64,000 nucleotides of DNA from Vulcanimicrobiota bacterium. GTDB taxonomy: Bacteria; Vulcanimicrobiota; Vulcanimicrobiia; Vulcanimicrobiales; Vulcanimicrobiaceae. The stretch spans positions 152,589 to 216,588 of the forward strand of contig PLCF01000085.1 of assembly GCA_003135555.1 (NCBI GenBank), read 5' to 3'. The position numbers and the translations under genes were made by a program. The notes under the pieces are model-generated. The model did no database searches, was not told where the DNA came from, and saw nothing but the letters and a program-made list of their open reading frames with translations. Below, in pieces: positions 33,901 through 63,073 of this stretch (positions are counted from its first letter, which is position 1; each line of letters begins with the position of its first letter).

Positions 33901-34128
33901 CCTTGCCTCCAAGAAAACGCCGCCGAGAAAAGGCCCGAAGAGAGCGGCTGCGGCGGGACGGTTCATTCTAGCCCAAGCGTGGTATGCCGTATAGCCCGAT
34001 TGGGATCATTGCCTGCGCAACACCATCGCACGGAGTCGCCGATACGAAGTAGCGGCCCCACCGAAGGGAAACAAGACCAACCTAAGCCCTCGGCCAGTTC
34101 GTGCGATGCTCTTGAGGCTACGGCTAGA

Positions 34129-40489: not shown

Positions 40490-40576
40490 ACACGACGAGT
40501 GACGGCACGCGGCGCTCGATTCCTGCGGATACAGGTCACGGCGGAACCCGCGGCCGGCACGCGGAACAACGCCGCG

Positions 40577-41608
40577 ATGAACGTGCTGGTCACCGGCGGC
40601 GGGGGATACATCGGCCTCGAGTTGTCCCGTCAGCTCCTCGAACGCGGCGACACGGTGCGCGTCGTCGATCGCTTTTTCTTCGGAGACGCACCCTTGGCGC
40701 GGCTGGCCGAACAGAGCGGCACAGCGTTGACGTACGTTGCCGGCGACGTGCGCGAGCTCGATCCAGGCTGGCTCGAGGGCGTCGACGCCGTGTCCCACCT
40801 CGCCGGCCTGTCGAACGATCCGACCGCCGAGTACAACCCCGACGCCAACTGGCAAATGAATGCCATCGCGACGGAGCGCCTGGCCGAGGCGTGCAAGGCG
40901 CGCGGGATCGCGCGCTTCGTCTTCGGCTCGTCCGCGTCGCTCTACGACGGTATCGGTCCGGGGATGTTCGACGAGCGGACGGCAGTGCAGCCGCGCGGAG
41001 CCTACTCGTTGTCCAAGAAATACGCCGAGGACGCGCTGCTGCGCTTGGGCGACGCGCGTTTCGCGCCGGTGGTGCTGCGGCAAGGCACCGTGTACGGCTG
41101 GTCGCCGCGGATGCGCTTCGACCTCGTCGTCAACACGTTCCTCAAGGATGCGGCGACGGTCGGGAAGCTGTACCTCCACGGCGGCGGGTGGCAGTGGCGC
41201 CCGCTGGTGGACGTCGGTGACGTCGCCCGCGCGCACATCGCGTGCTTACATGCGTCCGCCGACCTCGTGGGCGGCGAGATCTTCAACGTGATGCAGGAGA
41301 ACTACCAGGTGCGCCAGCTGGCGATGCTGGTCGCCGGATCGCTGTCGCTGCGCGGCCGGGTGGTGACGCTCGAGGAAGCGCCGCTGCCCAAGCTCGTGCG
41401 CGACTACCGGATGTCGAACCTCAAGCTGACGCAGCGACTTGGTTTCACGCCCGCGGTAACGGTCCTCGAGTCGATCGACCTGATGCTGCAAAGCCTTCCG
41501 CTCGACGACGTCGCCTGGCTCGCGAACCCGCGCTGGTACAACATCGCCTGGATGAGCTTGCTCGAAGAAGTTCACGCCTCGCAGCGCCCCTTCGCGTCGA
41601 TTTACTGA
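40577..41608 (+). CDS. NAD-dependent epimerase/dehydratase
   Basis: 'VTGGGGYIG', 'HLAGLSNDP', 'YSLSK', 'LRQGTVYGWSPRMRFDLVVN'. Confidence 0.85.
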   Translation: MNVLVTGGGGYIGLELSRQLLERGDTVRVVDRFFFGDAPLARLAEQSGTALTYVAGDVRELDPGWLEGVDAVSHLAGLSNDPTAEYNPDANWQMNAIATERLAEACKARGIARFVFGSSASLYDGIGPGMFDERTAVQPRGAYSLSKKYAEDALLRLGDARFAPVVLRQGTVYGWSPRMRFDLVVNTFLKDAATVGKLYLHGGGWQWRPLVDVGDVARAHIACLHASADLVGGEIFNVMQENYQVRQLAMLVAGSLSLRGRVVTLEEAPLPKLVRDYRMSNLKLTQRLGFTPAVTVLESIDLMLQSLPLDDVAWLANPRWYNIAWMSLLEEVHASQRPFASIY

Positions 41609-41681
41609 GCGCTCGGCAGCCGGCATGGGTTCACTAGGTGGCGCGGGGCGAAAGGATAGGGTTCCGTCACACCTTGCGGTC

Positions 41682-42401
41682 ATGACCGAAAGCCGATCAC
41701 CGATCGGCGCGTCGCTGGCGCGGCAGGTCTTGCTGACGGTTACACCCTGGCTGGCCGGGCGCCCGTTCGATCAGCTCGCCGTTCTCGACATTGGATGCGG
41801 CTTCGGGGCCACGGCGATCGCGCTGTCGCAATCGTGCCGACACGTCGTCGGGTTGGAGCCCATGGCCGGAATGGCCGAGGCGGCTCGCAACGCGGCCACG
41901 AGCTGCGCAAACGTCGACATCGTTCATGCCGACATCCTGAACTGGAACAGCGACGCGCGTTTCGATCTTGTGGTGCTCGACAACGTCTACGAACACGTCC
42001 ACGATCATCAGATGCTACTGACACAAGTCGTGAGGTTCTTGAAACCCAGCGGAGTGTTCTATATCGTCGTCCCGAACAAGCTATGGCCGATCGAAGTGCA
42101 CTACGGGCTTCCGTTCCTGAGCTACCTGCCGCTACGCTTCGCAAACCTCTACCTGAGGGCCGCCCACCGCGGCGAGGACTACACCTGGGCCAGCTTCGCA
42201 CCGACTTATTGGTCGATCCATCGCGATTTGCGCGCCTTTCCGCAATTGGAATACGCATTTACTCTTCCCGCCGACCTTTCGCTGACGGAGAGCGGCGCGT
42301 CGCCGATCTATCGCTTCGGCGCGTGGCTGATCGCCAAGAACGCGAAGTTCTGGGCGCTCTCCAAAGCATTCGTGGTCATCGGTAGGCGGCGGGAACTGTA
42401 A
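41682..42401 (+). CDS. Class I SAM-dependent methyltransferase
   Basis: 'VLDIGCGFG', 'NVYEHV', 'VPNKLWPIEVHY.LPF'. Confidence 0.8.
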   Translation: MTESRSPIGASLARQVLLTVTPWLAGRPFDQLAVLDIGCGFGATAIALSQSCRHVVGLEPMAGMAEAARNAATSCANVDIVHADILNWNSDARFDLVVLDNVYEHVHDHQMLLTQVVRFLKPSGVFYIVVPNKLWPIEVHYGLPFLSYLPLRFANLYLRAAHRGEDYTWASFAPTYWSIHRDLRAFPQLEYAFTLPADLSLTESGASPIYRFGAWLIAKNAKFWALSKAFVVIGRRREL

Positions 42402-42402
42402 C

Positions 42403-43218
42403 GTGGATTTGCAGCGCTCCCCGCTACTGACCGTGCTGATGCGCGTCTACAATGCCGAAGACCACGTCCACGAAGCCATCCGATCGGTACTCTTGCAAGG
42501 GTTCGTTGACTTCGAACTGCTGATCGTGGAGGGCGCGTCCTCTGACAGGTCGGGCGAGATCGTACGCTCCTTCAGCGATTACCGAATCCGCATCGTGCCG
42601 CAGACCGGGCTAGGGAAGAACGACGCATTGGCGTGCGGGCTCGCCGCCGCACGAGGGCTGTATCTGGCGATCCAAGACGCCGACGACCTCAGCCTGCCCA
42701 ACAGATTCGCGCGTCAGGTGTCTGCCCTTAACGGCGATGCCGATATGGTCATCGTCGGAAGCTGGGTATCCATCATCGAAAAGCGCGGGGCCGAAATCGG
42801 CGTGCGCACATACCCACTCGACGACGCAGCGATCCGCCGCGCTATGGCGTTGTACAATCCGTTCGCGCACTCGGCAGTGATGTTCCGACTGGCTCCTGCT
42901 CGCGCTTGCGGCGGCTACACCGACACGCAGGTCCTCGAGGACTACGACTTCTATCCGCGCCTGCTCGCATACGGAACGTGCGCGAACCTACCCGAGGTGC
43001 TGACGGCATACCGGTTGCACACCTACGCGACGGCACAGCACGTAAAGTTCATCCTCAAGGCGACGCTCGATACCAAGTGGAAGATGCACACCGTTTACGG
43101 CTATCGCTGGACCTTTCGAAGCGTTGCGGTATTCTGCTCGCAGTGGCTCATGCAGCTGCTGCCATCCCGTGTCGTCAACGTGCTCTTCCGCATCATTTTC
43201 ATCAAACGCCGAAGGTAA
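42403..43218 (+). CDS. GT2 glycosyltransferase
   Basis: 'VLMRVYNAE', 'IQDADD', 'PNRF..Q', 'AHSAVMFR', 'EDYDF'. Confidence 0.85.
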   Translation: MDLQRSPLLTVLMRVYNAEDHVHEAIRSVLLQGFVDFELLIVEGASSDRSGEIVRSFSDYRIRIVPQTGLGKNDALACGLAAARGLYLAIQDADDLSLPNRFARQVSALNGDADMVIVGSWVSIIEKRGAEIGVRTYPLDDAAIRRAMALYNPFAHSAVMFRLAPARACGGYTDTQVLEDYDFYPRLLAYGTCANLPEVLTAYRLHTYATAQHVKFILKATLDTKWKMHTVYGYRWTFRSVAVFCSQWLMQLLPSRVVNVLFRIIFIKRRR

Positions 43219-43270: not shown

Positions 43271-44209
43271 GTGCGTTGCGTCGTAACGGGATGCGCTGGG
43301 TTCGTCGGAAGCACGCTAACCGACCGCCTCTTGCGCGATGGGCATTCAGTGGTCGGAATCGATAATATGTCGACTGGGCGCGAATCGTTTCTGATTTCCG
43401 CCCTGTCGTTGCCGGAGTTCACGTTTCGGCGTGCCGATGTCGTCGATCGCGCGTCGATCGAGCCGCTCTTTGTGGGCGCGGAGATCGTCTTCCATCTCGC
43501 TGCCAACGCCGACGTGCGCTTCGGTACGGACCATCCCACGAGGGACTTCGAGCAAAACGCGGTCGCGACGTTGAACGTTCTCGAAGCCATGCGAGCCAAC
43601 GGCGTCCCCAAGATCGCGTTCGCCTCGACGGGCTCGGTCTACGGTGAAGCCAGCCAGATCCCGACTCCCGAAAATGCTCTGATGCCGATCCAGACCTCGC
43701 TGTACGGGGCGTCGAAAGTCGCGGCGGAGGCTTTCATCGAGGCGTACTGTGAAGGATTCGGGATGCAAGCCTGGATCTTTCGATTCGTTTCGCTGCTTGG
43801 GGAGCGCTACACGCATGGCCACGTCGTCGACTTCGTGCGGCAGCTCCGCGAGCATCCCGAACGTCTCCATGTTCTCGGCGACGGATTGCAACGAAAATCA
43901 TACCTGTATGTCGGCGACTGCATCGACGCGATCGTAGTCGCTCTCGAGCGCGCAACAGCAAAGGTGAACGTGCTGAACTTAGGCGCGGATCAGTACTGCA
44001 CCGTTAACGACTCGATCGGCTGGATCTGCGAGCGCATGGGTGTCGACCCGGCCCGCACGTATTCGGGCGGCAAACGCGGGTGGATCGGCGACAATCCGTT
44101 CATCTTTCTCGATTGCGCGTCGATGCGCGCGCTAGGTTGGCGGCCAACGCGGTCGATTCAGGCAGCGGTGCATGGCACGGTCGACTACCTACTTGCGAAC
44201 GAGCAATGA
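43271..44209 (+). CDS. NAD-dependent epimerase (GalE-like extended SDR)
   Basis: 'VTGCAGFVGS', 'HLAANADVRFG', 'STGSVYGE', 'YGASK', 'LGDGLQRKSY'. Confidence 0.85.
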   Translation: MRCVVTGCAGFVGSTLTDRLLRDGHSVVGIDNMSTGRESFLISALSLPEFTFRRADVVDRASIEPLFVGAEIVFHLAANADVRFGTDHPTRDFEQNAVATLNVLEAMRANGVPKIAFASTGSVYGEASQIPTPENALMPIQTSLYGASKVAAEAFIEAYCEGFGMQAWIFRFVSLLGERYTHGHVVDFVRQLREHPERLHVLGDGLQRKSYLYVGDCIDAIVVALERATAKVNVLNLGADQYCTVNDSIGWICERMGVDPARTYSGGKRGWIGDNPFIFLDCASMRALGWRPTRSIQAAVHGTVDYLLANEQ

Positions 44210-44219
44210 GGGGGTGGCT

Positions 44220-44963
44220 TCACAGCGAGAAGCCGGCCGCTTTCGCATCGTCGTGGAACATCCGCACGGTTTCGAGTGAATAGGCATCCAAGTCTTTGCC
44301 GACGTTGGAAAGCTTCTTGAGGATGTCGTTCGTCGCCGTGATGATGTGGCACCCCACGGTGTCGGCCTGAAACACGTTGAGAAGCTCTCTGGGGCTGGCC
44401 CAGATCAACTCAGCTTTCGGGCGGCTTGCCATCGCGGCGAGCGACCGCCGCACGTACGGAACCGGATCGCGCCCGGTGTCCGCGATGCGGCCGGCAAAGA
44501 GCGAGACGTACGCCGGCACGTCGGCTGCGAGTGCGGCAGTCACCTCGGAAACCTGCTCGACCGTCATGAGAGCCGTGACGTTCAACTTGATTCCAGCGGC
44601 CGAAAGGCGGCGCACGATCGGCGTCGCAGACGCACCTTTCGTATTCGTTACCGGGACCTTCACGTAGACGTTCTCACCCCATGACGCGATACGCGCGGCC
44701 TGGTGCTCCATCTCGTCGAAGTCGTCGGAGAACACCTCGAACGAAATCGGGCGGTCGGCGATCTTCTCGAGCACGCCGCGCGCGAAGGTTTCGTAGTCGG
44801 CGATCCCGGCTTTGCGCATGAGCGTGGGGTTCGTAGTGAACCCGGCAATGTAGGGCAGGGCGGCCATATCCAGCATGCCGGCCAGGTCCGCACCGTCGGC
44901 GAATAACTTTACCGACAGGGCCGCCACTGACGGCGCTGCAGTCAACTCATCGGGTGCTATCAT
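44220..44963 (-). CDS. Small (TalC/FSA-type) transaldolase
   Basis: 'KLFADGA', 'GFTTNPTLM', Schiff-base lysine in 'VYVKVP', 'NVTA', 'SLFAGRIADTG', 'WASPRE'. Confidence 0.9.
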   Translation of the reverse strand: MIAPDELTAAPSVAALSVKLFADGADLAGMLDMAALPYIAGFTTNPTLMRKAGIADYETFARGVLEKIADRPISFEVFSDDFDEMEHQAARIASWGENVYVKVPVTNTKGASATPIVRRLSAAGIKLNVTALMTVEQVSEVTAALAADVPAYVSLFAGRIADTGRDPVPYVRRSLAAMASRPKAELIWASPRELLNVFQADTVGCHIITATNDILKKLSNVGKDLDAYSLETVRMFHDDAKAAGFSL

Positions 44964-45507
44964 CGCAGATCCATCTCCAAGCCTCAGTGAGCGAGGCGAC
45001 GCCAGCGTCGTGGCCGACCGGGCTGCATTCGGCGTAGGAGCGTTCGATCCACACGGTCCGGCACCTCGCGCGCCGACCGGCTTCGATGTCGCTCCACCGG
45101 TCGCCGACCATGTACGACGCGTCGAGGTCGAGACCCAATTCGCGCGCCGCCCTGAGCAGCATGCCCGGCTTCGGTTTGCGGCACGCGCAGCCGTCTTGGT
45201 TGTCGTGAACGCACGTGTAGACGGCGTCAACGCCCACCGCGGCGCGGAGGCGTTCGTTGATCGCGTCGACGGCCGCGGCGGTCGTCGTGCCGCGGGCTAC
45301 GTCCGGCTGATTCGTGACGACGACGACCATAAACCCGCGGGCGCGCAAATCGGCGACGACGCGTGCCGCATCGGAATCGATCGCGAGCTCCTCGGGCACG
45401 GTGGGCGGGTACGGTTTGCCGTCGCGCACGACCGCGGCGTTCAGTACGCCGTCGCGATCGAAGAAGACCGCCGGCTTCAGCGCGGCGTCGTCGCGACCGA
45501 CTCCCAT
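44947..45507 (-). CDS. gmhB: HAD sugar-bisphosphate phosphatase (GmhB family)
   Basis: 'FFDRDGVLN', 'VTNQPD', 'CACRKPKPGML', 'MVGDRWSDI'. Confidence 0.9.
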   Translation of the reverse strand: MGVGRDDAALKPAVFFDRDGVLNAAVVRDGKPYPPTVPEELAIDSDAARVVADLRARGFMVVVVTNQPDVARGTTTAAAVDAINERLRAAVGVDAVYTCVHDNQDGCACRKPKPGMLLRAARELGLDLDASYMVGDRWSDIEAGRRARCRTVWIERSYAECSPVGHDAGVASLTEAWRWICDDSTR

Positions 45508-46112
45508 TTCGTCGCGGCGGCCTTTAACAAGGGGTGCGTGACCAGCAGGTGCCAGACGACCGCTTGAAAAGCCTCAGCATGGGGCGTGACGTGCTCACCA
45601 TTGATGGTTGGAATGAGAACGCAGACATCCGCAACGGTCGCCGTGTAGCCGCCGTCACGGCCGACGATCCCCACGATCGTTGAGCCGACTTCGTGTGCGT
45701 ATTCGAGTGCGCGGACGAGGTTTGGGCTGACGTTACGCTCCAGGTCGCCGCCCCCGACCGAAAAAATGAGAATCGCATCGTCGGGCCGCAGGCGGCTCAC
45801 GCGCAGCCACTCCACGAAGACGGTGGCCCAGCCCTCGTCATTCGTGCGCGCCGTCAGTTCGGAGACGTTGTCGGTCGGAGCGTATGCCTCGAACCCAGCC
45901 AACTTGCGAAAATCATTCACGGCGTGCGATGCGTTACCGGCGCTCCCGCCGACACCGAGAATAAACAGGCGTCCGCCGCGCTCGCGAGCTGCGGCCAGCT
46001 TTACCGCCAGTGACTCGATCGCCGCCGCATCCAGCCCATCGATTACCTGGCGCGACTCGCGCAAGAACGACTCGCTGAAGCTCGTTGGTCGGGCGGAAGG
46101 GGCGGTAGTCAC
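45477..46112 (-). CDS. gmhA: SIS-domain phosphosugar isomerase (GmhA family)
   Basis: 'GVGGSAGNASH..ND', 'LTARTND.G', 'SPNLVRAL', 'EAFQ..VWH'. Confidence 0.85.
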   Translation of the reverse strand: MTTAPSARPTSFSESFLRESRQVIDGLDAAAIESLAVKLAAARERGGRLFILGVGGSAGNASHAVNDFRKLAGFEAYAPTDNVSELTARTNDEGWATVFVEWLRVSRLRPDDAILIFSVGGGDLERNVSPNLVRALEYAHEVGSTIVGIVGRDGGYTATVADVCVLIPTINGEHVTPHAEAFQAVVWHLLVTHPLLKAAATKWESVATTPR

Positions 46113-46810
46113 TTGTCGATCCTCATACGGCGTGCTGTTTCTTCAAGGCCTGTTGGCGAACCGATCTCAAAGGGCCGCGAGTCGACGACGTATGCCGTAA
46201 GCTCGTTATCGGCGATAAGACGCTGGTTCACGACCGTGAGATCGGCCGGCTGGCCCGGTGCCAGGGTCGCGAATGCATCGGCACTGAACGCGCTAAGGCC
46301 GGAGTCGACGTACTCGGCATCGGGCCAACGGACCTGCTTGTCATAGCGCGTCACCAGTCCGCCCGAGACCGACGCGTTTGGCGCGTCGGTTCCCGAACCT
46401 CGATAACGATAGACCGCCATGAGTCCGGCCCGCCCGGACGACTCGAAGGCGCGCACCACGTCCGAGTAGTCGACGGCATGGTACACATCTCCAAACGTTA
46501 CGAGGAAGCGGTCGCCCAACAGCGGCAAGGCAGCGCGAACAGCGCCCGCCGTGCCGAGCGGCACCTCGCCATCTGAGATGTACCTGACGTGGACTCCGAA
46601 CGCGGCGCCGTCGCCGGCATACTCTGCGATCATCTCACCAAGATAGCCGGTGAGCAGCACCACATCGCAGACGCCGCGCCGCCTGAGCGAGCGCAGCAGA
46701 GGGCCCAGAAACGGTTCGCCGTTGACGTCGATCAACGGCTTGGGGACCCGCAGCGTGTGCGGGCGCATGCGGATCCCAAGTCCTCCGCACAAGATTGCAA
46801 TCGGAAGCAC
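46109..46810 (-). CDS. hddC: Sugar-1-phosphate nucleotidyltransferase (HddC-like guanylyltransferase)
   Basis: 'ILCGGLG.RM.....PKPLI.V.GEPFL', 'PLGTAGA', 'FEIGSP.GL'; located in the hddA-gmhA-gmhB operon. Confidence 0.75.
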   Translation of the reverse strand: MLPIAILCGGLGIRMRPHTLRVPKPLIDVNGEPFLGPLLRSLRRRGVCDVVLLTGYLGEMIAEYAGDGAAFGVHVRYISDGEVPLGTAGAVRAALPLLGDRFLVTFGDVYHAVDYSDVVRAFESSGRAGLMAVYRYRGSGTDAPNASVSGGLVTRYDKQVRWPDAEYVDSGLSAFSADAFATLAPGQPADLTVVNQRLIADNELTAYVVDSRPFEIGSPTGLEETARRMRIDK

Positions 46811-46811
46811 G

Positions 46812-47795
46812 TCAGCTCATCGAAAGAACGGTCGTTCCCTGGGAATCGAAGTCGACCCGGACCTCGGGAAGTCCGGCTTCGCGCATCGCATGACGGAGCT
46901 GCGTCTTGTTCTCGGTGTAGAACAGAAGAAAGCCGCCGCCTCCGGCGCCGATCAGCTTGCCGCCGAGCGCTCCGTTCGCTCGCGCCAGCTGATACCAGCG
47001 GTCGATGCGCTCGTTCGTCATCCCCGCGGAGCGCACACGCTTGCGTTCCCAATGCTCGTGCATGATCCCGGCGAACATCCGCAGATCGCCGCCCTCGAGC
47101 GCAGCCAAGCTGCGCTGTCCGAGCTCCTTGACGTAGTGAAGGTCATCGATCATGCGGCGGTCCGTGTTCTTCGTGCGGTCGTCCTGATCTTTGAGGATCG
47201 CCGACGCCGAGCGCGTGTAGCCGGTGAAGAAGAGCATCATGCCGTCCTGCAGGTTATCGCGCGTTTCGGTGTCGATTCGAACGGCCTTGACGTTCACCGA
47301 TCCGTCGGGTGCGAAGTCCATCATGGTGATCCCGCCGTAGGCGGCGATGTACTGGTCCTGCTTGCCGATGGGCTCACCGAGCACGTCTATCTCGAGGTGA
47401 CAGGCCTCTTCAGCGAGCCGCGCCTTCGTGACGATCTCGTGGTTCATGGCGTGCAGTGCGCCGAGCAACGCCGTCGTAAAGCTGCCGGAGGAGCCCAGCC
47501 CCGTGCCCGCCGGGATGTCGGACATGCTAGCGATCTCCAGCGAGGTGACCGGCGTTCCCGTGAGACGCAGTGCTTCGCGAATGATCGGATGGGCGATCTC
47601 CTCGACCGCCGTGACACGTTCCATTCGGGAGTATTTAATGATGCACTCTTCTACGAACGTGCGGTGCAGCGTGATGTACACATACTTGTCGATCGCGGCG
47701 GCGACCAGAAATCCGCCGTGCTCGCGGTAGTACGACGGCAGGTCGGTGCCGCCGCCGCCGAGCGAGATGCGCAGCGGCGAACGAACGATGATCAT
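46812..47795 (-). CDS. hddA: GHMP sugar-phosphate kinase (HddA family)
   Basis: 'RSPLRISLGGGGTD', 'DIPAGTGLGSSG', 'GKQDQY', 'GGKLIGAGGGG'. Confidence 0.85.
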   Translation of the reverse strand: MIIVRSPLRISLGGGGTDLPSYYREHGGFLVAAAIDKYVYITLHRTFVEECIIKYSRMERVTAVEEIAHPIIREALRLTGTPVTSLEIASMSDIPAGTGLGSSGSFTTALLGALHAMNHEIVTKARLAEEACHLEIDVLGEPIGKQDQYIAAYGGITMMDFAPDGSVNVKAVRIDTETRDNLQDGMMLFFTGYTRSASAILKDQDDRTKNTDRRMIDDLHYVKELGQRSLAALEGGDLRMFAGIMHEHWERKRVRSAGMTNERIDRWYQLARANGALGGKLIGAGGGGFLLFYTENKTQLRHAMREAGLPEVRVDFDSQGTTVLSMS

Positions 47796-48784
47796 GCGCG
47801 ACCTTCCATTGCGTACACCTGTTCAACGATCGCCAGCGCTGCGGCCGCGTCCTCGAAATTCGGCTGGGGCTCCCGGTCGAGGGCGATGTCGTCGAGAAAC
47901 GCCTGGTACTCCGCGGCCCAGGAGTCGTCTCCCATGGGGTACTCGTAGATCGTAGTCGGCGGCGGACCAAGTTGGGGCGTCATCGCATAGTACGAAAGGC
48001 GCTCGACGCCGTAGCTGCCGCCCAGGCCGCCGATCTCGAGCTTCCCGGTACGCCCGAAAATCTCGAACGAGAACAGATTCTTCCATTCAGTCCACGACGC
48101 GTGCAGCGAGGCGACCTGGCCGCGCGGCGTACGCAGCAGAAAGAACGCGTTGTCTTCGACCGGAGCGGCCCAGAAGTACGTCGGAACGGCGCCCGCGACG
48201 ACGCTGAAATCGCCGAGGAACCACCGTGCGAGGTCGACCAAGTGCATCCCCTGATCGATTGCCTCGCCGCCGCCCGAGACCTCGGGGACGAAGCGCCACT
48301 CTTTCTCGTAGCCAAGCCGACCGCCGTGGCCATAGCGGCCGCGGACGTGCGTGAGCTCGCCGATGCCGCCGCGGTCGACGATCTCGCGCGCTTGCCGAAA
48401 CGCCGGATGGTAGCGGTGATTGAAGCCCACGCGGACCTTGGCTCGGCTACGCGCAACCGCGGCGCGGACCGCGCCGAGCTCGCCGCTGCGGCGCGCCGCC
48501 GGTTTCTCGACCAACACCTGTTTCCCGGCGTCCGCTGCGGCAGCGGTGATCTCCGCCAGGACGTCGTGCGGGGTCGCGACCACGACCAGATCGATGTCCA
48601 TGCGAGTGACGATCTTGCGCCAGTCGGACGCCGGCTCGGCGCCACACGCAGTCGCAAGCGCTGCTGCTCGCGATCCGTTCGAATCGCACACTGCGCGCAA
48701 GCTTCCGGGCGGCATCGCGCGCGCGCGCTTCTGACCGATCAGGCCACAGCCGACGATCGCGGCCCTCGGGATCACCAGCTCCAT
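47792..48784 (-). CDS. Gfo/Idh/MocA-family oxidoreductase
   Basis: 'VGCGLIG', 'VATPH', 'VEKP', 'GFNHRYHP', 'GGGEAIDQGMH'. Confidence 0.9.
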   Translation of the reverse strand: MELVIPRAAIVGCGLIGQKRARAMPPGSLRAVCDSNGSRAAALATACGAEPASDWRKIVTRMDIDLVVVATPHDVLAEITAAAADAGKQVLVEKPAARRSGELGAVRAAVARSRAKVRVGFNHRYHPAFRQAREIVDRGGIGELTHVRGRYGHGGRLGYEKEWRFVPEVSGGGEAIDQGMHLVDLARWFLGDFSVVAGAVPTYFWAAPVEDNAFFLLRTPRGQVASLHASWTEWKNLFSFEIFGRTGKLEIGGLGGSYGVERLSYYAMTPQLGPPPTTIYEYPMGDDSWAAEYQAFLDDIALDREPQPNFEDAAAALAIVEQVYAMEGRA

Positions 48785-49623
48785 CCTCGGTCTTCCGGGA
48801 CGATCCTGCGCAGCGTTAGAACGTCACCGTCGAGCTGCTCTCGCCGCGCCGGGAACGTTCGCCACGGGTCCCAGGGTGCGGACACGAGCTTCCCGGTAAT
48901 GCCGTCGGCGTCGCGCGAGGCGAGAAAGACGCACAGCTCGGCGCCCAGCGTGAGCGGCGTTCCGCCGCTCTCGCGCTGCTTGAGCGACGCCTCGTAGAAG
49001 GCGTCTCCGACGGTCGCGGGACCCGCTGCGAGCACTTCGTGCAGGAGCCGCGTATTGAGCGCGCCGGGCGCGACCATGTTGACGTCGATGCCGGCCTCGC
49101 GCAGCTCTTCGGCAAGCGTCTCGCCGTAGCGCACGACGCCGGCCTTGGAGGCCGCGTACGCACTCAGGAAAGGCAGCGGCTTTGTCGCCCCCCCGCCGGA
49201 GAGGATCACAATCTTTCCCCGCGCGCTCCGCCGCAGCGCCGGCAATGCGGCACGGGTACAGTAGACGGCGCCGAGCAGATTGATGTGGATCGCATCGACC
49301 CAGCCGCGCCAGTCGACGTCTTCGATCCCGCCCATCGGTCCGTAGATGCCGGCGTTCACGATCAGCGCGTCGAGGCCGCCGAACGCGCTGGTGACGGCGG
49401 CGACGAGCGCGTCGACGTCTTCCTCGCGCGACACATCGGCGACGCGCGCTTCGATCCGCACGCCGGGATGCTGCTCGCGCAACGCATTCGCGGCGCGCTC
49501 GAGGCCGGCCACCTCACGTGCGCAAATTGCGACATCCGCACCCGCCATGGCGAACGAGTCCGCAATCGCGAGGCCGATCCCCTGCGATGCGCCAGTAACT
49601 AGGACGCGCTGCGGTGCGCTCAC
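48772..49623 (-). CDS. Classical short-chain dehydrogenase/reductase
   Basis: 'TGASQGIG', 'VNAG', 'SAYAASK', 'VAPG'. Confidence 0.9.
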   Translation of the reverse strand: MSAPQRVLVTGASQGIGLAIADSFAMAGADVAICAREVAGLERAANALREQHPGVRIEARVADVSREEDVDALVAAVTSAFGGLDALIVNAGIYGPMGGIEDVDWRGWVDAIHINLLGAVYCTRAALPALRRSARGKIVILSGGGATKPLPFLSAYAASKAGVVRYGETLAEELREAGIDVNMVAPGALNTRLLHEVLAAGPATVGDAFYEASLKQRESGGTPLTLGAELCVFLASRDADGITGKLVSAPWDPWRTFPARREQLDGDVLTLRRIVPEDRGWSW

Positions 49624-50912
49624 TCGGACACTTCCGCGGCGCCCGCCCCGCGTCCGAACGCGACATACTGCAAGGCCGTCGTTGCGCCCAAGGACTCTTC
49701 GAGGAATCGTGCCTGGTCGACGACGATACGCCGGCGCATCATCTCGAACACCGCGGGCGGAATCTCCCGGAACGCCGGCCACCCCGTAGAGATAACCGCC
49801 GCGTCCGCGCCCGCCAAGGCTGCGGCGGCCGAGGGGACGAGCTCGGCGATTCCTGCGAGCCGCCCGTCGCCGGCCGCGATCGCCGGATCGTAGGCTACGA
49901 GCGCGACCCCATCGGCGCGCAGCCGGTGCGCCAGCGCGACCGCGTTCGACCCGCGCAGCGTGTCGGTGCCGGGTTTGTAGACGAGCCCAAGAAGTGCGAC
50001 ACGTGGCGAAGGCACATCGCGCAGTGCCTCGCGCACGCGCTCGTACGTCCAGTTCCGGTGCTGGGAGTTGCTTGCCGCAGTGGCTCGAATTTGTTGTACG
50101 GGCACCCCCGTGCGGCCGGCGAGCGCAGCGAGAAAAATCAGGTCGCGGGCCAGGGTCCCTCCGGCGAATGCCTCTCCGGCGCGAACATACGCCTTCGGGC
50201 CGATGCGAAGATCGCTCTTGAGGCCGCGCTCCACGTCGCGCGCATCGGCGTCGGTCCGCTCGCATATCGCCGCGAGCTCGTTCGCGAATACGACCGAAGT
50301 CGCCAGGAACGCATTTATCGCGTGCTTCGTCATCTCCGCCGACTCGACGTTCATGGCGACTATCGCCGGCGCGAACGCGCGTAGCGCGCGCTGTATCGTT
50401 TCGAGGGCACGTGGCTCGCGCGTGCCGACGACGAACCGGTCGGGCGAGCGGAAGTACGCGATCGCCGACCCCAGCCGCAAATTCTCCGGAACCGCGGCGA
50501 ACGCAAAGCGGCCGCCGAGCCGGTGCTCGAGCTCGGCGACGCTCCCGACGGGAAGCTGCGACGAGACGGCGACGACAGCGCCGCCCGGCAACGCGGAGAG
50601 CAGGTTCGTAGCGCGCTCGAGCACCCTATCCACGTCGGGCCGGTCGGCGTCGTCGATCGGCGTGTCATAGCAAATCCACACGAGCTCTGCATGTGCCGCC
50701 GCCTCCGCATCGGCGCGAAAGACGAGACGGCCCGCGGCGCTTTGCGCTGCGATGAGTTCGCCCAGTCCAGGTTCCTCGACCGGAAGGCGGCCGGCCTCGA
50801 TCTCCGCGACGACCTTTGGCTCGTCGAGCGCAACGACATCATGCCCCTCGGCGGCGAGGCACGCTGCGGTCACCGTCCCGAGGTGCCACAATCCGGCAAC
50901 GGCGATCTTCAC
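49620..50912 (-). CDS. UDP-glucose/GDP-mannose dehydrogenase-family protein lacking the catalytic Cys
   Basis: 'GLWHLG', 'PENLRLG', 'AEMTKHAINAFLA', 'GLVYKPGTDTLR'. Has 'AGGTLARD' where Ugd has GGSCFPKD. Confidence 0.8.
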   Translation of the reverse strand: MKIAVAGLWHLGTVTAACLAAEGHDVVALDEPKVVAEIEAGRLPVEEPGLGELIAAQSAAGRLVFRADAEAAAHAELVWICYDTPIDDADRPDVDRVLERATNLLSALPGGAVVAVSSQLPVGSVAELEHRLGGRFAFAAVPENLRLGSAIAYFRSPDRFVVGTREPRALETIQRALRAFAPAIVAMNVESAEMTKHAINAFLATSVVFANELAAICERTDADARDVERGLKSDLRIGPKAYVRAGEAFAGGTLARDLIFLAALAGRTGVPVQQIRATAASNSQHRNWTYERVREALRDVPSPRVALLGLVYKPGTDTLRGSNAVALAHRLRADGVALVAYDPAIAAGDGRLAGIAELVPSAAAALAGADAAVISTGWPAFREIPPAVFEMMRRRIVVDQARFLEESLGATTALQYVAFGRGAGAAEVSE

Positions 50913-51622
50913 TCGGGCTTCCGGAAAGCGATCGTGATGAAATGCGCGTGCGTCGCGTCGAGGCGGCCGACGCTCGGAGGCAGTGGATGATAGCCCGCCC
51001 CGAGCGCGCGAACGAGTTGCAGCCCGTGCAGCGTGCCGAGTTCGATCAGGCCCCGCAAACTGAAGATGCGATGGTGCTGCATCGGAAACGGCCAGCCTTC
51101 GTCACCGCGTCGAAGGGCGAGCGGATTCCCGACGCCGGCTGCCAGGCCGCTGACATTGGTCAGAGAGAACGCTTGCCAGCCAAGCACAAGCGCGCCGATG
51201 TTGTGCCAGCTCGAGGCGTTCTCGGTCGAGACGATGACGAGGCCGCCCGGCTTCGCGATCCGAGCGTTCTCTGCGACGAAGAGGTCCGTGTCGTAAAGGT
51301 GTTCGATCACTTGATTGCTCACGACGAGGTCGAAGCTGTCCGCGGGAAACGGCAGGTGCGCGTTGAGGTCCGCTTCCGCGACGGTGAACCCGCGCCCGGT
51401 CGCTGCGCGCACGTGCGGATCGAAGACTTCGACGACCGACACGGACTCAGGCTCGAGGTCACGGGCGAGACGCACGGTGAGCGCTCCGTCACCGCAGCCG
51501 AGATCGACCATCGTCCCGCCCCGGCGAAACCCCGCTGTTTTGGCGAGCTCGGCGATGTTCCGCTCGTTGAGGGCGATCGCCTCATCCATTAGCCGCAGTC
51601 CCCAGGTCTTGAAGTTATGCAC
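50909..51622 (-). CDS. Class I SAM-dependent methyltransferase
   Basis: 'VDLGCGDG', 'LPFPADSFD', 'NQVIEHL', 'STEN..SWHN'. Start could be the ATG at 51589. Confidence 0.8.
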   Translation of the reverse strand: MHNFKTWGLRLMDEAIALNERNIAELAKTAGFRRGGTMVDLGCGDGALTVRLARDLEPESVSVVEVFDPHVRAATGRGFTVAEADLNAHLPFPADSFDLVVSNQVIEHLYDTDLFVAENARIAKPGGLVIVSTENASSWHNIGALVLGWQAFSLTNVSGLAAGVGNPLALRRGDEGWPFPMQHHRIFSLRGLIELGTLHGLQLVRALGAGYHPLPPSVGRLDATHAHFITIAFRKPE

Positions 51623-51859: not shown

Positions 51860-52744
51860 GTGCGGGAGGGTCGATGCAGGCCGTCGTATCCTGTCGCTCC
51901 GATGCCGCCGACCCCTGGGCGCTCTCAGCCTCGCGTTACGATTCCGCCCGCGACGAGCGTATATGGAAACGTCGAACAGCACGCAGCCGCAGGCGACGGC
52001 GGCCTGCCGGCGCCAAGCGCCCGCCACAGCACAACGGCCGGCTCGGCCCACCCCCCGAAACCGTTTGCCGACCTTGCCATCGTTATCCCCGCATATGGCG
52101 AGGAGGGCAGCATCCGGGACGTCGTTGCCTCCCTTCGGGAATTCAACCCCGATGCCGTGGTCGTGGTCGTCGACGACGGATCGCGGGACGCGACTGCGGA
52201 CGCCGCGTTTGATGCGGGCGCGTTCGTGCTGCGGCATCCGATCAACCTTGGACAAGGAGCAGCGCTCCACACCGGCATCCGGTACGCCGTTCGGCGCGGA
52301 GCATCGATTGTCTGTACCTTCGACGCCGATGGTCAGCACGATCCTAGCTCGATACCCGCTATGCGCAGTCTACTGGACGATAGTCAAGCCGACGTCGTCC
52401 TGGGCTCGCGGTTCTTGGCCGAGAAACAATATGTCCCGCCGGTCCGGCGTGCGATGCTGAAAATGGCGCTTGCATTTACAAGGCTGCACACGGGTCTCGC
52501 GCTGACCGATACCCACAACGGTCTGCGGCTGATGCGCGCCCACGCGGCGCTGCTGATGCTGCCGCGTCAGGCCGGGATGGCGCACGCGTCGGAAATGCTC
52601 GACCTCATTGCGACCCACCGGCTCCGGTATGTCGAGATTCCGAGCGAGGTCAAGTATACCGGGTATTCGATGCGGAAGGGACAGCGCTCGTTCAACGCTG
52701 TGAAGATCATCTTCGAACTCGCGTACCGGCGCCTCACGAGGTAA
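51860..52744 (+). CDS. GT2 DPM-synthase-like glycosyltransferase (true start uncertain, probably downstream)
   Basis: 'VIPAYGEE', 'VDDGSRD', 'HPINLGQGAAL.TG', 'FDADGQHD', 'GSRF', 'DTHNGLR'. Confidence 0.85.
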   Translation: MREGRCRPSYPVAPMPPTPGRSQPRVTIPPATSVYGNVEQHAAAGDGGLPAPSARHSTTAGSAHPPKPFADLAIVIPAYGEEGSIRDVVASLREFNPDAVVVVVDDGSRDATADAAFDAGAFVLRHPINLGQGAALHTGIRYAVRRGASIVCTFDADGQHDPSSIPAMRSLLDDSQADVVLGSRFLAEKQYVPPVRRAMLKMALAFTRLHTGLALTDTHNGLRLMRAHAALLMLPRQAGMAHASEMLDLIATHRLRYVEIPSEVKYTGYSMRKGQRSFNAVKIIFELAYRRLTR

Positions 52745-52748
52745 CGCG

Positions 52749-53117
52749 ATGATCGTAAGCGTGCTCGTACTCTGCTTCATCATCATCGCGATCTACGTAG
52801 GAAGCCATCGGCTCAACGGCGTGCAGACGATCGCGGTGATTCTGTTCTTTCTCGTCGGTGTCGTGGTCGTCGTGTTCCCTACCGTCGCCGCCGGCATTGC
52901 CGAGCATCTTGGCGTAGGCCGCGGGGTCGATCTCGTCCTGTACCTCAGCGTCGTGGGCGGCTTGTTCGTCGCTGCGAACTTCTATTTCCGCATCAAGAGC
53001 CAAGAGGACATGCTCGGTACAATGGCGCGCGAGATCGCGCTGATGGCGCCGCGGGAGCACACGGTCCATGCCGCGCCGCCCGCGGGCGACAGGCCGGCGC
53101 CCGAAGCATCCAGTTGA
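52749..53117 (+). CDS. DUF2304-like small membrane protein
   Basis: Three TM segments, 'FP......A..LGVGRGVDLVLY', 'REIAL'; typical neighbour of this GT2 type. Confidence 0.75.
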   Translation: MIVSVLVLCFIIIAIYVGSHRLNGVQTIAVILFFLVGVVVVVFPTVAAGIAEHLGVGRGVDLVLYLSVVGGLFVAANFYFRIKSQEDMLGTMAREIALMAPREHTVHAAPPAGDRPAPEASS

Positions 53118-53121
53118 GCAT

Positions 53122-55233
53122 TTAGTCCACGACTTTGAGGAGCTCGACGGTCGTGCGTGTTCCGGGCTGCAGCTGTTCGGTGACGAGCCTCAGGTGCTTC
53201 CACAGTGGAGTAGCGCGCATTCCGCCAAGAGCCTCCTTCCAAACGACGACATACGTGCAGCCGGCATCACTGAGTCGCGCGTACGCATCCGGCGACGCCA
53301 GAGTCCATTCGTTGAGCGCTGCTGGGCCACCGTAGTTTGTTCCATTGAAGATCTCGGTCTGGCTGTACATGTTCATGAACTGCAGGTTGACGGCGTCGTA
53401 GATTTTGTCGCGCTGCGGGTCCAAGTGAGCGTTCGCGTACTCCAATATCGGCGCATCTTGCAACATGATCCCGCGCTCTGGCAGATTCTCATAGAGGTAT
53501 GCAAAATTCAGGTACTGGGTGCCCATTACGGCCGGCGATGTCGCCCCGCGCTGGAGCCGCGTCACCAGCCCGTTTCCGAGTGCAGAGAAGATCAGAATGG
53601 ACGCGATGAGGCCCACCTGCGCTAGGCGCGCCCCGCGCCAATCCTGGCCGAGTACGGCGTACCCTATCAAGAGGGCGACAACCGGAAGCGCGGTTTCAAG
53701 GTAACGAAACTCGACGGCGCCGCTGACGAGGACGAGCGCCGTAAACCACGCGGCGAAAGCGGATATCGGACGGATCACCTCCGTGCCCCGCCGCGCGAAG
53801 AACGGCAGGGCGGCCCAAATTGGCAGAAGCGCCAGCCAAAGGGGGCCTGGAAGGTCGCGGAACTTCAACGGGTCCATCGTCATCGCCCAAGGCAGCGAGA
53901 CGAGGTTGGCCGGATCGAGCGTCTCCATGAGTCGCCCACTGAAGGTGTTCGAAACATTCGCGCCCATTGTCGCCGCACCGTACTGAGAATGGAAAATTCC
54001 CGGCGCAAGCGGAAAAATCGGATCCCCGATCATCCATTGAGCCGTAACGAGCGCAGGAGCGGCAGCCAGCAGCGCGCAACCCGCATACGACAAGAGCTGC
54101 GCCAGCAGAGCCCTTCTCGGCGCCTGCCGCCTTTGCAGGACACGCAAGGCAACAATTCCGAGCGCGATCACGGCGAACGCGCCGAACGTCTTGATACCGT
54201 AGGTAATCCCCAGAAAAAATCCGGCGCCGCCCAATGCAAGCTTCGACTCCGTGCGTTGCCACGAAAGATAGCAATGCAGCGCCAGGATGACGAATGGAAC
54301 AGCCCCGAGGTCGTTCTTCGCGGTCGTCGCAGACCACGCGACAACGGGTGAAGCGAAGAGGATTAGGGCAGCGGTCTCGCCGATCGCGCTCGACGAGAAC
54401 CACGCTCGGGAGAACGCGATCAGTGCCAGCACGGTCATAACCGCCCCGCCCCAAGCAATGAGCTTGGCACCAATGGCCCCGACGAGGACCCACTCGAACG
54501 CGTAAACCGTTTCTTGATAGTGCGGCAGTGCGAAGGCCCAGATGCGTTCCGACGCGACGAGATTGAAAAAGCCATGGTGCTGCGCGTACCGGAACGCCTC
54601 GGCAAGATGGTAATAGCGTGCGTCGAAGCCAACCTCGGGCGTGAGTGCGGCCAACAAGCTCACGTAGAGAGAAGCTGCCAGCAGTACCCAAATCAATGCA
54701 GTTAGGAGGCGCGGCACGCGGACGGTGTCCTTGAGCCGCGGCGCATTGCGCAGCCAGCGCCAGACGGAGAACGTCGAGAACGCGAACCCCCCGAGCAAGA
54801 GCGGAACTTCGAACCGCCGATGCAGCAGATGTAGGGTTGCGAGCAGATAGGCAACCGCGATGAGCACGGCTAGGCCGGCAACCATGCCGAATGCGATTCG
54901 GTCGAATGCGTCGCGAGCTGGAATGCGAAATGCGCGCAGCAATGCATCTCCGGGGCCGATCCCCGCACCGAATGTAAGGGCGAGTGCCGAGACGAGCACC
55001 GCATTGCGAGGGATGTGGGTCAGAATCAAACCGAGGTGCGAAAGGTCGGCCCAAACGGCGCTACGGATAGCCGGATCGTCAAACGCATAAACGTGGATGG
55101 CGATCACAACGGCCCAGATCGGCAACAGGGCCGCGCCGAAGACTGCGAATCGACCCCATCGGCTGTCCAATATCGGCGTTGCGTGCAGCGGCTCGTCGGG
55201 CTGCGGGCCGCCGCGGATACTCGGCGGGGCCAA
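53122..55233 (-). CDS. GT-C-fold membrane glycosyltransferase, paralog B
   Basis: Colinear with 25180-27288 ('PEVGFDARYYHLAEA', 'WSATTAKNDL', 'WMIGDPIFPLA'). Start uncertain. Confidence 0.7.
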   Translation of the reverse strand: MAPPSIRGGPQPDEPLHATPILDSRWGRFAVFGAALLPIWAVVIAIHVYAFDDPAIRSAVWADLSHLGLILTHIPRNAVLVSALALTFGAGIGPGDALLRAFRIPARDAFDRIAFGMVAGLAVLIAVAYLLATLHLLHRRFEVPLLLGGFAFSTFSVWRWLRNAPRLKDTVRVPRLLTALIWVLLAASLYVSLLAALTPEVGFDARYYHLAEAFRYAQHHGFFNLVASERIWAFALPHYQETVYAFEWVLVGAIGAKLIAWGGAVMTVLALIAFSRAWFSSSAIGETAALILFASPVVAWSATTAKNDLGAVPFVILALHCYLSWQRTESKLALGGAGFFLGITYGIKTFGAFAVIALGIVALRVLQRRQAPRRALLAQLLSYAGCALLAAAPALVTAQWMIGDPIFPLAPGIFHSQYGAATMGANVSNTFSGRLMETLDPANLVSLPWAMTMDPLKFRDLPGPLWLALLPIWAALPFFARRGTEVIRPISAFAAWFTALVLVSGAVEFRYLETALPVVALLIGYAVLGQDWRGARLAQVGLIASILIFSALGNGLVTRLQRGATSPAVMGTQYLNFAYLYENLPERGIMLQDAPILEYANAHLDPQRDKIYDAVNLQFMNMYSQTEIFNGTNYGGPAALNEWTLASPDAYARLSDAGCTYVVVWKEALGGMRATPLWKHLRLVTEQLQPGTRTTVELLKVVD

Positions 55234-58224: not shown

Positions 58225-58290
58225 GGTCGCGCCTGCCGTACGGGCCTGCAGCGCGCGGGTCCTTCCGCGGTGTTTCGCGGGGAGGTAAGC

Positions 58291-59115
58291 ATGCCGGACG
58301 TGTCGATCCTACTGGCGGTGAAGGTTGTGATCCTTGCCGGGGGACTCGGGACCCGAATGGGTGACGAGACGCTGGTGCGGCCCAAACCGCTCATCGAGAT
58401 CGGCGGACACCCGATCCTGTGGCACCTCATGAACGTCTATGCGGCGTACGGTTTCGATGAGTTCGTGCTGGCCCTGGGATACCGGGGCGATTTGATCAAG
58501 GACTACTTCCTCAACTTCGAAGCCCGCAACAGCGATTTGACGATCGATCTCGGCAGCGGCGCGGTCGAGGTGCTCGAGCGGCGCCATCCACGCTGGAAGG
58601 TCCATCTCATCGACACCGGCCTCGACACCCAGACGGGCGGACGGCTCCTTCGCCTGCGCGAGCTGATCGGCGAGCAGCGCTTCATGTTGACGTACGGTGA
58701 CGGGCTCGCCAGCGTCGACGTGCGGGCGCTCGTGCAAGCGCACGAGTCGCGCGGGGCGCGTGCGACGTTGACGGCGGTCCGGCCGCCGGCGCGGTTCGGC
58801 AACATTCGTTTGGCTCACGACGGTGCCCGGATCGAAGACTTCACCGAAAAGCCGCAGACCGACGCGGGCTGGATCAACGGCGGTTTCTTCGTGTTCGAGC
58901 CGGCGATCTTCGACTACATCGACGGCGATGCGACGGCGCTGGAACGCGAGCCGCTCGAACGGCTGGCCGCCGACGGCGGGCTATACGCGTTTCGCCATGA
59001 AGGCTTCTGGCAGCCGATGGATACGCTGCGCGAGCGCCGTCTGCTCGAAGAGCTGTGGGACTCGGGGCGCGCGCCCTGGAACGTCTGGAACGACCTGCCC
59101 TCGCCCACGGCGTGA
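58291..59115 (+). CDS. rfbF: Glucose-1-phosphate cytidylyltransferase
   Basis: 'KVVILAGGLGTR..ET..RPKP..EIG..PILWH', 'DTG..TQTGGRL', 'WINGGFFV', 'FWQPMDTLRE'. ATG follows GGAGG; alternative GTG start at 58318. Confidence 0.95.
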   Translation: MPDVSILLAVKVVILAGGLGTRMGDETLVRPKPLIEIGGHPILWHLMNVYAAYGFDEFVLALGYRGDLIKDYFLNFEARNSDLTIDLGSGAVEVLERRHPRWKVHLIDTGLDTQTGGRLLRLRELIGEQRFMLTYGDGLASVDVRALVQAHESRGARATLTAVRPPARFGNIRLAHDGARIEDFTEKPQTDAGWINGGFFVFEPAIFDYIDGDATALEREPLERLAADGGLYAFRHEGFWQPMDTLRERRLLEELWDSGRAPWNVWNDLPSPTA

Positions 59116-59137
59116 CGGCGCGCCGGCCGAAGCGCTC

Positions 59138-62528: not shown

Positions 62529-63073
62529 CCGTGTCGCCGACGGCGATCCCGGGGCTCGTGGTGATCGACGTCGAGGTCCATCGCGACGAGCGCGGCAGCT
62601 TCGCCCGCGTCTTCGACCGCGAGGTCTTCCGCGCGCACGGGTTGTGCGCGGACTACCCGCAGCACGGGTGGGCGACCAACTCGCAGCGCGGCGTGGTCCG
62701 CGGCCTGCACTATCAGACCGCGCCGTTCGCCGAGCACAAAGTCGTGCGCTGCACGCGGGGAACGGTGTGGGACGTCGTCCTCGACGCGCGCCGCGGCTCC
62801 CCGACCTACGGCCGCTGGGAGGCATTCGAGCTGGACGGCGAACGACCGCGGATGCTCTATCTGTGCGCCGGGCTGGCCCACGGCTACCAGACCCTCAGCG
62901 CCGAGTCCGAGCTGCACTACCTCCTTTCGGCGCCGTATACGCCGGCGCACGCGGCCGGCGTGCACTGGCGCGACGCCCGGCTGGCGATTCCCTGGCCGCT
63001 CCCTGCCACGGTGGTCGGCGCGCGCGACGAGGCGCTTCCGCAACTCGCCGACGCCCCGGATTCCACGCCGTGA
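62525..63073 (+). CDS. rfbC: NDP-4-keto-6-deoxyhexose 3,5-epimerase (RmlC family)
   Basis: 'DERGSFAR', 'GVVRGLHYQ', 'KVVRCTRG..WDV..D.R..SPTYG', 'AHGYQTL'. Confidence 0.85.
   Translation: MTVSPTAIPGLVVIDVEVHRDERGSFARVFDREVFRAHGLCADYPQHGWATNSQRGVVRGLHYQTAPFAEHKVVRCTRGTVWDVVLDARRGSPTYGRWEAFELDGERPRMLYLCAGLAHGYQTLSAESELHYLLSAPYTPAHAAGVHWRDARLAIPWPLPATVVGARDEALPQLADAPDSTP

Follow-up and report, generated by a model that had tools for sequence, protein, structure and literature searches.

In a 64,000-nucleotide stretch of contig PLCF01000085.1 from a Vulcanimicrobiota bacterium (assembly GCA_003135555.1, genome 84% complete; the names of homologues likewise indicate Vulcanimicrobiota/Eremiobacterota), hereafter the window, nine neighbouring genes form a cassette that is conserved across many bacterial phyla and in methanogenic archaea, where it lies in surface-glycan loci. 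The cassette encodes a small transaldolase, a phosphatase, an isomerase, a nucleotidyltransferase, a kinase, a Gfo/Idh/MocA oxidoreductase (Gfo), a short-chain dehydrogenase/reductase (SDR), an epimerase and a protein resembling uridine diphosphate (UDP)-glucose 6-dehydrogenase (Ugd). It is real and widespread, and apparently represents an uncharacterised variant of the pathway that supplies the eight-carbon sugar of the lincosamide antibiotics. Judged from sequence comparison, the nine genes probably make a guanosine diphosphate (GDP)-activated eight-carbon sugar for a cell-surface glycan, using the lincosamide route with a changed last step. Four of the proteins, the Ugd-like protein, Gfo, the epimerase and the phosphatase, are assigned by their sequences as orthologues of the octose enzymes CcbL, CcbZ, CcbM and CcbK, and the SDR stands in place of the lincosamide aminotransferase.

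The lincosamide enzymes were represented by the Ccb-type proteins of one locus (L134), which are called Ccb-type on the strength of PDB matches. The C-terminal domain of its Gfo protein matches the PDB entry 'CcbZ', and its glycosyltransferase matches 8IL0/8IXP with 599 bits. The locus also carries TldD, MDMPI, AMP-ligase and chorismate-binding genes, a set with which the celesticetin gene content tabulated in a section of PMC4351081 agrees; on these matches, it is classified as a celesticetin-type cluster. In a chaplin-rich genus, a homologue of the kinase was found in 14 of 401 genomes, and six of those loci have the gene order R-S-O-P-Z-N-M-L with K nearby, which matches the lmbVTQRSOPZNML operon as given in a passage of PMC12945683. 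A class search begun at an actinomycete locus did not lead to any lincosamide cluster. When the eight Ccb octose enzymes were searched against the Vulcanimicrobiota genome with tblastn, the top match of every one was a cassette gene, narrowly so for CcbO (79 vs 70 bits) and as the sole match for CcbR. Identities to the window proteins were 52% for K, 40% for M, 39% for L, 38% for Z, 36% for O, 33% for N and P, and 30% for R. In the reverse search, the cluster gene was matched first in four of four genomes by Gfo (178–216 vs at most 95 bits), by the epimerase (209–228 vs at most 106 bits) and by the transaldolase.

The Ugd-like protein shares with Ugd the three Pfam domains, the fold and the catalytic Lys, Asn and Asp. 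Compared with the canonical Ugd encoded at 7130–8464 of the window, however, it has GLWHLG instead of GxGxxG, Gln instead of a conserved Thr and Thr253 instead of the catalytic Cys, the absence of which had been read correctly in the preliminary description of this DNA. The residues W9, H10, Q119 and T253 are invariant among 91 homologues, and the predicted structure is a Ugd fold (predicted local distance difference test score 92.5) with a template-modelling score of 0.89 to BceC. Trees made with a quick method grouped the Ugd-like protein with CcbL apart from canonical Ugd (Shimodaira–Hasegawa-like approximate likelihood ratio, SH-aLRT, 100; 46 of 102 rows) and placed Gfo in a clade with CcbZ, separate from 21 further Gfo proteins (SH-aLRT 98; 44 rows). 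CcbL carries 16 of 20 and CcbZ 14 of 19 of the residues diagnostic of the cassette, while outgroup rows carry at most one and two, respectively. The special affinity of these two proteins to LmbL and LmbZ, on which the preliminary description had staked its octose proposal in advance, was thus found in both clade and residues. A predicted complex of the Ugd-like protein with Gfo scored 0.00 (mark 0.32) and was weighed neither way.

The epimerase falls into a clade with CcbM (SH-aLRT 99, quick method; 49 of 69 rows), and usually its gene immediately precedes the Ugd-like one. Its closest solved relatives are two GDP-sugar 4-epimerases, PhGal4E_1 (8RDG, 274 bits) and an A. fulgidus enzyme (3EHE, 223 bits), which were characterised on hexoses, whereas the cassette enzyme groups with CcbM. 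The subgroup of 8RDG is described in a passage of PMC12171764 as GDP-preferring and promiscuous. For the phosphatase, a careful method nested CcbK within the cassette phosphatases with support of 98/94 (35 rows), with the proviso that all trees of Ccb and cassette proteins may be influenced by long branches and by high GC content.

Conservation of the cassette was assessed by a genome scan that returned 80 loci, of which 17 have the Thr-type Ugd-like gene; the other 63 have canonical Ugd, which the alignment included, and served as controls. Gfo was present in 15 of the 17, the SDR in 14 (two of the three misses are contig ends), the kinase in 13, and each of isomerase and transaldolase in 10. 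Seven loci lacked the isomerase; five of these were checked genome-wide, and all five genomes have it at 64–69% identity. Kinase, isomerase, phosphatase, transaldolase and SDR were all absent from each of the 63 control loci. The record titles of the Ugd-like loci include Myxococcales, Verrucomicrobiota, Legionella, Acidobacteriota, Planctomycetota, Methylococcales, Saccharibacteria, Methanospirillum and Methanoperedens, and as unrelated phyla share this set of families, the grouping is not one of chance. Within the same genus, the Thr-type gene was found in seven of 36 genomes. Eight same-genus loci show three gene orders: five have all nine genes, while in three the epimerase is of another kind and one of the three lacks a nucleotidyltransferase in the stretch. 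All nine genes are also found on plasmids of Lawsonia intracellularis (L237, NC_008014.1) and Rhizobium jaguaris (L238, NZ_CP032695.1); the Lawsonia record labels the cassette kinase 'galactokinase'. A search with Gfo gave at least 7,978 matches at E ≤ 1e-60 among 8,000 candidates scored. One relative (G021) holds two copies of the cassette (L098, L099), one of them fragmented by frameshifts, and a 741-aa epimerase/Ugd-like fusion is on record (P0022); either may be an assembly error.

The exchange of SDR for aminotransferase was seen directly. Lincosamide-order clusters have the aminotransferase in six of six cases and the SDR in none of six, while in glycan cassettes the SDR is the rule. The search of this 84%-complete genome with CcbS found no orthologue of the LmbS/CcbS-type 6-aminotransferase in the cassette; the best matches, at most 171 bits, lie outside the window, against 325–346 bits for streptomycete counterparts. 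No close solved structure was found for the SDR. In another locus (L251 1952–3070), about 5 kb separate a complete nine-gene cassette from the gene of a DegT aminotransferase that matches CcbS at 48% identity (274 bits), and this locus might make both a reduced and an aminated sugar. Four streptomycete-like genomes (L137–L140) have the full R-S-O-P-Z-N-M-L-K amino-octose set (e.g., L137 6991–19450). The L137 set has as neighbours a class II tRNA-synthetase-like gene and genes for a glycosyltransferase, an aldo-keto reductase, a hydrolase and a phosphotransferase, in place of TldD/MDMPI, and its product is possibly a non-lincosamide amino-octose. The methyltransferase at the head of the operon was rejected as a member of the pathway, as it is not conserved with the cassette: there was one weak match in the 17 loci, none in the eight same-genus loci and an unlinked homologue in one of five relatives. 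The earlier suggestion that the sugar is possibly methylated is therefore left without support.

LmbM, LmbL, CcbZ and CcbS are described in a passage of PMC12945683 as converting GDP-octose into GDP-lincosamide. From these assignments, the following route is proposed for the cassette. The transaldolase would transfer the C3 unit of fructose-6-phosphate or sedoheptulose-7-phosphate to ribose-5-phosphate, and the remodelled isomerase would turn the resulting octulose-8-phosphate into octose-8-phosphate, from which the kinase, phosphatase and nucleotidyltransferase would produce GDP-octose. GDP is favoured as the carrier, given that GDP-sugar 4-epimerases are the group closest to the cassette epimerase. 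This LmbM-type enzyme may determine the configuration of the side chain or of C4. Oxidation at C6 and loss of the C8 hydroxyl would then fall to the CcbZ-type Gfo together with the Cys-less LmbL-type protein and lead to a 6-keto-8-deoxy intermediate. Since an SDR stands in place of the aminotransferase and the genome has no CcbS-level match, the simplest reading is that the 6-keto group, which lincosamide producers aminate, would be reduced to yield a neutral GDP-8-deoxy-octose for use by neighbouring glycosyltransferases. Wang et al. are said to have reported in 2020 that the lincosamide steps are 6- and 4-epimerisation, 6,8-dehydration (LmbL/CcbZ) and 6-transamination. Such a dehydration needs a carbon 8. 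A carbon number of eight is regarded as probable.

The enzymes that would act before these steps belong to the families of the GDP-heptose route, with which the cassette shares the isomerase, 1-kinase, phosphatase and nucleotidyltransferase, the four-step logic and the type of genomic context. The labels HddA kinase and GmhA isomerase, given in the preliminary description, hold at the level of family. The NCBIfam scores are 156 for HddA (kinase; cut-off 600), 50 for GmhA (isomerase; cut-off 209) and 67 for HddC (nucleotidyltransferase; cut-off 300), so far below the cut-offs that the three names do not denote orthology; the HddA cut-off is a strict one, reached in none of 201 sampled Bacillota genomes. 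In the isomerase, the STSGxS loop of GmhA, which we take to be the phosphate-binding loop, is replaced by SVGGG and a six-residue insertion, and Asp and Glu occupy the positions of GmhA Glu65 and Gln172. The cassette enzyme thus has neither the loop nor the Glu/Gln/His set of GmhA, given as E-Q-H in a passage of PMC4697000. The pattern SV(G/H)GG with 6–9 additional residues was found in 16 of 18 cassette isomerase rows and in six of six lincosamide-order rows; among 41 other rows, 38 have the short form of the loop (five rows overall are unmatched by the pattern). In the isomerase tree, cassette and Ccb sequences are united with support of 94/88 (48 of 65 rows).

The cassette transaldolase belongs to TIGR02134 (349.6 bits; cut-off 282). 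Its tree sets cassette and Ccb rows apart from TalC proteins that are mostly of Bacillota (38 of 57 rows), and CcbR matches 11 of 36 cassette-diagnostic columns, against three for the outgroup consensus. A four-residue insertion common to CcbR and the cassette enzyme was discarded as an octose marker after it was seen in three of three non-cassette proteins of the TIGR02134 type. According to a passage of PMC5854111, LmbR is a transaldolase that makes octulose from ribose-5-phosphate, as an ordinary transaldolase also can; the cassette enzyme, therefore, need not be a close orthologue of LmbR. Of 38 non-lincosamide loci with a cassette-type isomerase, 36 have a transaldolase gene in the same stretch, the two misses being contig ends; these loci are not independent, as eight belong to a single genus and 20 were chosen via the Ugd-like gene. 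A transaldolase gene was present in none of 14 loci where a short-loop, canonical GmhA lies beside an HddA-type kinase; seven further kinase loci from this control set had neither GmhA nor transaldolase. This co-occurrence suggests a substrate beyond what central metabolism supplies. A housekeeping Tal-Pgi lies on another contig (C31), which rules out the cassette transaldolase as the housekeeping enzyme of the genome, and a gmhA-gmhB-hldE set for the canonical heptose pathway lies on contig C21. The cassette therefore provides a second transaldolase, isomerase and phosphatase.

Several observations weigh against the octose pathway proposed here. The reciprocal search that had been suggested for the Lmb-type proteins succeeded for the epimerase, Gfo and transaldolase, but the reverse best match of the Ugd-like protein held in two of four genomes only. 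The clade of LmbM-type epimerases includes two streptomycete loci without a transaldolase. The approximately unbiased (AU) test does not reject a grouping with housekeeping enzymes for the isomerase (p = 0.52) or for the cassette transaldolase (p = 0.063). CcbN matches seven of 46 cassette-diagnostic isomerase columns, and the canonical GmhA outgroup matches 15. CcbR, 30% identical to the window enzyme, lies outside TIGR02134 with a score of 103 (cut-off 282), and members of this family occur in sugar-catabolic contexts as well. The cassette transaldolase keeps the canonical Glu/Phe pair of small transaldolases, where the CcbR-type protein (L134 12544–13578) has Gln and Leu. CcbP groups with other streptomycete kinases and shows no specific link to the cassette (45 of 52 rows). 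Finally, the SDR and Gfo occur without a Ugd-like gene in four of 15 acidobacterial loci. The earlier claim that all lincosamide families except the aminotransferase are present, together with an extra SDR, thus stands as regards the missing LmbS orthologue, the conserved SDR and the grouping of epimerase and phosphatase with CcbM and CcbK, while the links of the transaldolase, isomerase and kinase are weak.

The acidobacterial loci come from one draw of 201 genomes, in which the isomerase was found in 15, the transaldolase in 12 (11 in common) and the Ugd-like gene in one, with eight candidates scored per genome; the 15 isomerase loci were then read directly. The transaldolase lies in the same stretch in 13 of them, and one has all nine genes. 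Five of these genomes, which are metagenome-assembled and of unknown completeness, were searched again and gave 10 Ugd matches, eight with the Cys motif, two of indeterminate type and none of the WHL type. The occurrence of SDR and Gfo without the Ugd-like gene means that the set is modular, and the locus readings point to the five upstream genes as a core, Gfo and SDR as a pair and the Ugd-like gene as an add-on. The five upstream genes are often found without the tailoring genes; the window holds the full set. An acidobacterial capsule-type locus (L016 5593–14554), with an export protein, a tyrosine-kinase-like protein and MurJ, encodes a transaldolase and an isomerase that are 42% and 46% identical to CcbR and CcbN and nearer to these than to the window's proteins, alongside the Ugd-like, SDR and Gfo genes; by sequence, it is placed as an intermediate between the lincosamide and the glycan-cassette forms. 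Another locus (L017 10384–13307) has a cassette without the SDR, an extended SDR (epimerase/dehydratase) after Gfo and two epimerases of the LmbM clade.

The strongest alternative is a modified GDP-heptose, for which the transaldolase would boost sedoheptulose-7-phosphate, and Gfo, SDR, epimerase and the Ugd-like protein would alter the configuration or oxidation state of the heptose at C6 (or C4). The five upstream families match the GDP-heptose route with the addition of a transaldolase whose catalytic residues are canonical, the links of isomerase, kinase and transaldolase to the Ccb proteins are weak or ambiguous, Gfo and SDR without a Ugd-like gene would fit a simple oxidise-and-reduce epimerisation, and chain-length specificity can shift among related enzymes. 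From canonical heptose loci, the cassette differs in scores under the family cut-offs, in the remodelled residues and loop of its isomerase, and in a dedicated transaldolase and an LmbL/LmbZ pair, which those loci lacked. Against a heptose, the transaldolase was missing from 14 of 14 loci with a canonical-loop GmhA. Moreover, the genome already has canonical heptose genes elsewhere, four members are assigned as orthologues of octose-pathway enzymes, and the LmbL/CcbZ reaction, as described above, would have no direct C7 equivalent. A heptose is regarded as less likely than the octose, though the most probable of the alternatives. Still less probable is a different higher-carbon sugar, either made from another aldose acceptor (to give a nonose or a different octose isomer) or an octose whose C8 is not deoxygenated and which is epimerised or stays a ketose. 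The active-site positions at which the transaldolase differs from CcbR, the modularity of the cassette with its frequent lack of tailoring genes, and an SDR with a putative direction and position of reaction would all agree with such a product; the Ugd-like protein and Gfo, however, share most diagnostic residues with CcbL and CcbZ, and the full set is present in the window. That the sugar goes to a secreted, antibiotic-like small molecule is very improbable: the characterised counterparts are all from antibiotic pathways, but in this and other loci the cassette is surrounded by genes for glycosyltransferases, flippases, O-antigen ligase and capsule export, and Pfam scans of the larger window ORFs (open reading frames) found none of the adenylation, MDMPI or TldD-type families that the Ccb cluster has.

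The likeness to the lincosamide GDP-octose pathway (Lmb/Ccb R, N, P, K, O, M, L, Z and S) extends to eight of nine enzyme families at 30–52% identity, the clades for L, Z, M and K, the Cys-to-Thr exchange with the WHL motif, and the loop insertion of the isomerase. The cassette differs in lacking LmbS/CcbS, in its additional SDR, in a TIGR02134 transaldolase instead of the CcbR type, in a Gfo and an isomerase without the carrier-protein domain, in gene order and in its surface-glycan context, whereas thiol-transfer and condensation genes (S-glycosyltransferase, mycothiol-type and condensation genes LmbT, V, C, D, E and F) belong to the lincosamide clusters. AMP-binding, MDMPI and PmbA/TldD families were absent from a Pfam scan of 81 window ORFs, and no genome-wide search of the LmbT/V type was made.

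The ten ORFs of the locus are uninterrupted (Table 1). Their order, strands, tight coupling and convergent epimerase are as first described: seven of the eight minus-strand junctions overlap by 4–31 nt, the remaining one is a 1-nt gap, and the epimerase gene ends 10 bp from the transaldolase stop. The catalytic motifs of Gfo, SDR, kinase, phosphatase, transaldolase and epimerase are intact.

Table 1. Genes of the cassette and its immediate surroundings (window positions; ORF, Pfam and NCBIfam inspection).
Feature	Position	Strand	Remarks
Extended-SDR epimerase, 312 aa	43271–44209	+	GDP-sugar 4-epimerase group; assigned CcbM/LmbM orthologue
Small transaldolase, 247 aa	44220–44963	-	TIGR02134; putative LmbR-equivalent role (C3 transfer to pentose phosphate)
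HAD-IIIA/GmhB-like phosphatase, 186 aa	44947–45507	-	CcbK/LmbK counterpart
GmhA-like SIS isomerase, 211 aa	45477–46112	-	Pfam SIS_2; CcbN/LmbN counterpart
Sugar-1-phosphate nucleotidyltransferase, 233 aa	46109–46810	-	PF00483; CcbO/LmbO counterpart, probably guanylyl
GHMP (HddA-like) sugar-phosphate 1-kinase, 327 aa	46812–47795	-	PF00288/PF08544; CcbP/LmbP counterpart
Gfo/Idh/MocA oxidoreductase, 330 aa	47792–48784	-	assigned CcbZ/LmbZ orthologue
Classical SDR ketoreductase, 283 aa	48772–49623	-	adh_short; TGxxxGIG, YxxxK; no counterpart in lincosamide clusters
Ugd-fold protein, 430 aa	49620–50912	-	GLWHLG, SQxP, GGTLARD (catalytic Cys to Thr); assigned CcbL/LmbL orthologue
Methyltransferase, class I S-adenosylmethionine-dependent, 237 aa	50909–51622	-	PF13489; operon head here
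Upstream block: second epimerase, methyltransferase (41625–42401), glycosyltransferase family 2 (GT2) protein (42403–43218)	40574–43218	+	Pfam
Polyprenyl-phosphate glycosyltransferase-like GT2	51860–52744	+	downstream context; Pfam/NCBIfam
DUF2304 protein	52749–53117	+	downstream context; Pfam
Membrane protein, 703 aa, weak GT-C-like similarity	53122–55233	-	downstream context

The GT2 gene of the upstream block is a candidate for the acceptor side of the pathway. Among the downstream genes, matches to NF058614 (207 bits) and TIGR03766 (24 bits) are both under the cut-off. The window as a whole is one extended glycan locus, which encodes MurJ, an O-antigen ligase, a Wzm/Wzt-type transporter pair (ABC-2), Rml proteins and many glycosyltransferases. 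A promoter scan was at chance level (two sites vs 1.0 expected), with one site upstream of the operon, and a search around the operon for repeats that could mark inversion ends found low-identity pairs only. Elsewhere in the window, a nucleotidyltransferase, an acyltransferase, a dehydratase, a C-methyltransferase and a 3,5-epimerase (58270–63073) probably form a second pathway for a C-methyl-branched sugar. Two tandem 862-aa proteins with tectonin-like domains (31378–36717) are possible lectins within the glycan locus, and a PhyH-family 2-oxoglutarate dioxygenase amid glycosyltransferases (15884–17137) is a possible glycan hydroxylase.

In full-text searches of a library without most subscription journals, one of them on Lawsonia, neither this cassette nor a straight-chain octose in a surface glycan was described in the title or abstract of any listed paper, and straight-chain GDP-octose chemistry was found in the searchable literature for lincosamide biosynthesis only; branched octoses of other origin are known (PMC4753412). 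Going beyond the single locus, we tentatively suggest, at somewhat less than an even chance, that a widespread, unrecognised GDP-8-deoxy-octose pathway (with plain GDP-octoses in reduced cassettes) serves bacterial and archaeal surface glycans, and that the lincomycin/celesticetin sugar pathway is a derived offshoot in which an aminotransferase replaced the SDR. The nesting of CcbK among the cassette phosphatases and the intermediate locus L016 would fit such a putative origin. The proposal is directly testable, since the cultured, non-pathogenic carrier Rhizobium jaguaris has all nine genes. If it is true, thousands of loci labelled UDP-glucose dehydrogenase, phosphoheptose isomerase or galactokinase would encode an overlooked eight-carbon surface sugar. 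The cassette would then also indicate where the enzymes for the lincomycin sugar came from in evolution, and would offer orthologues for studying the LmbL/LmbZ dehydration mechanism as well as new octose donors.

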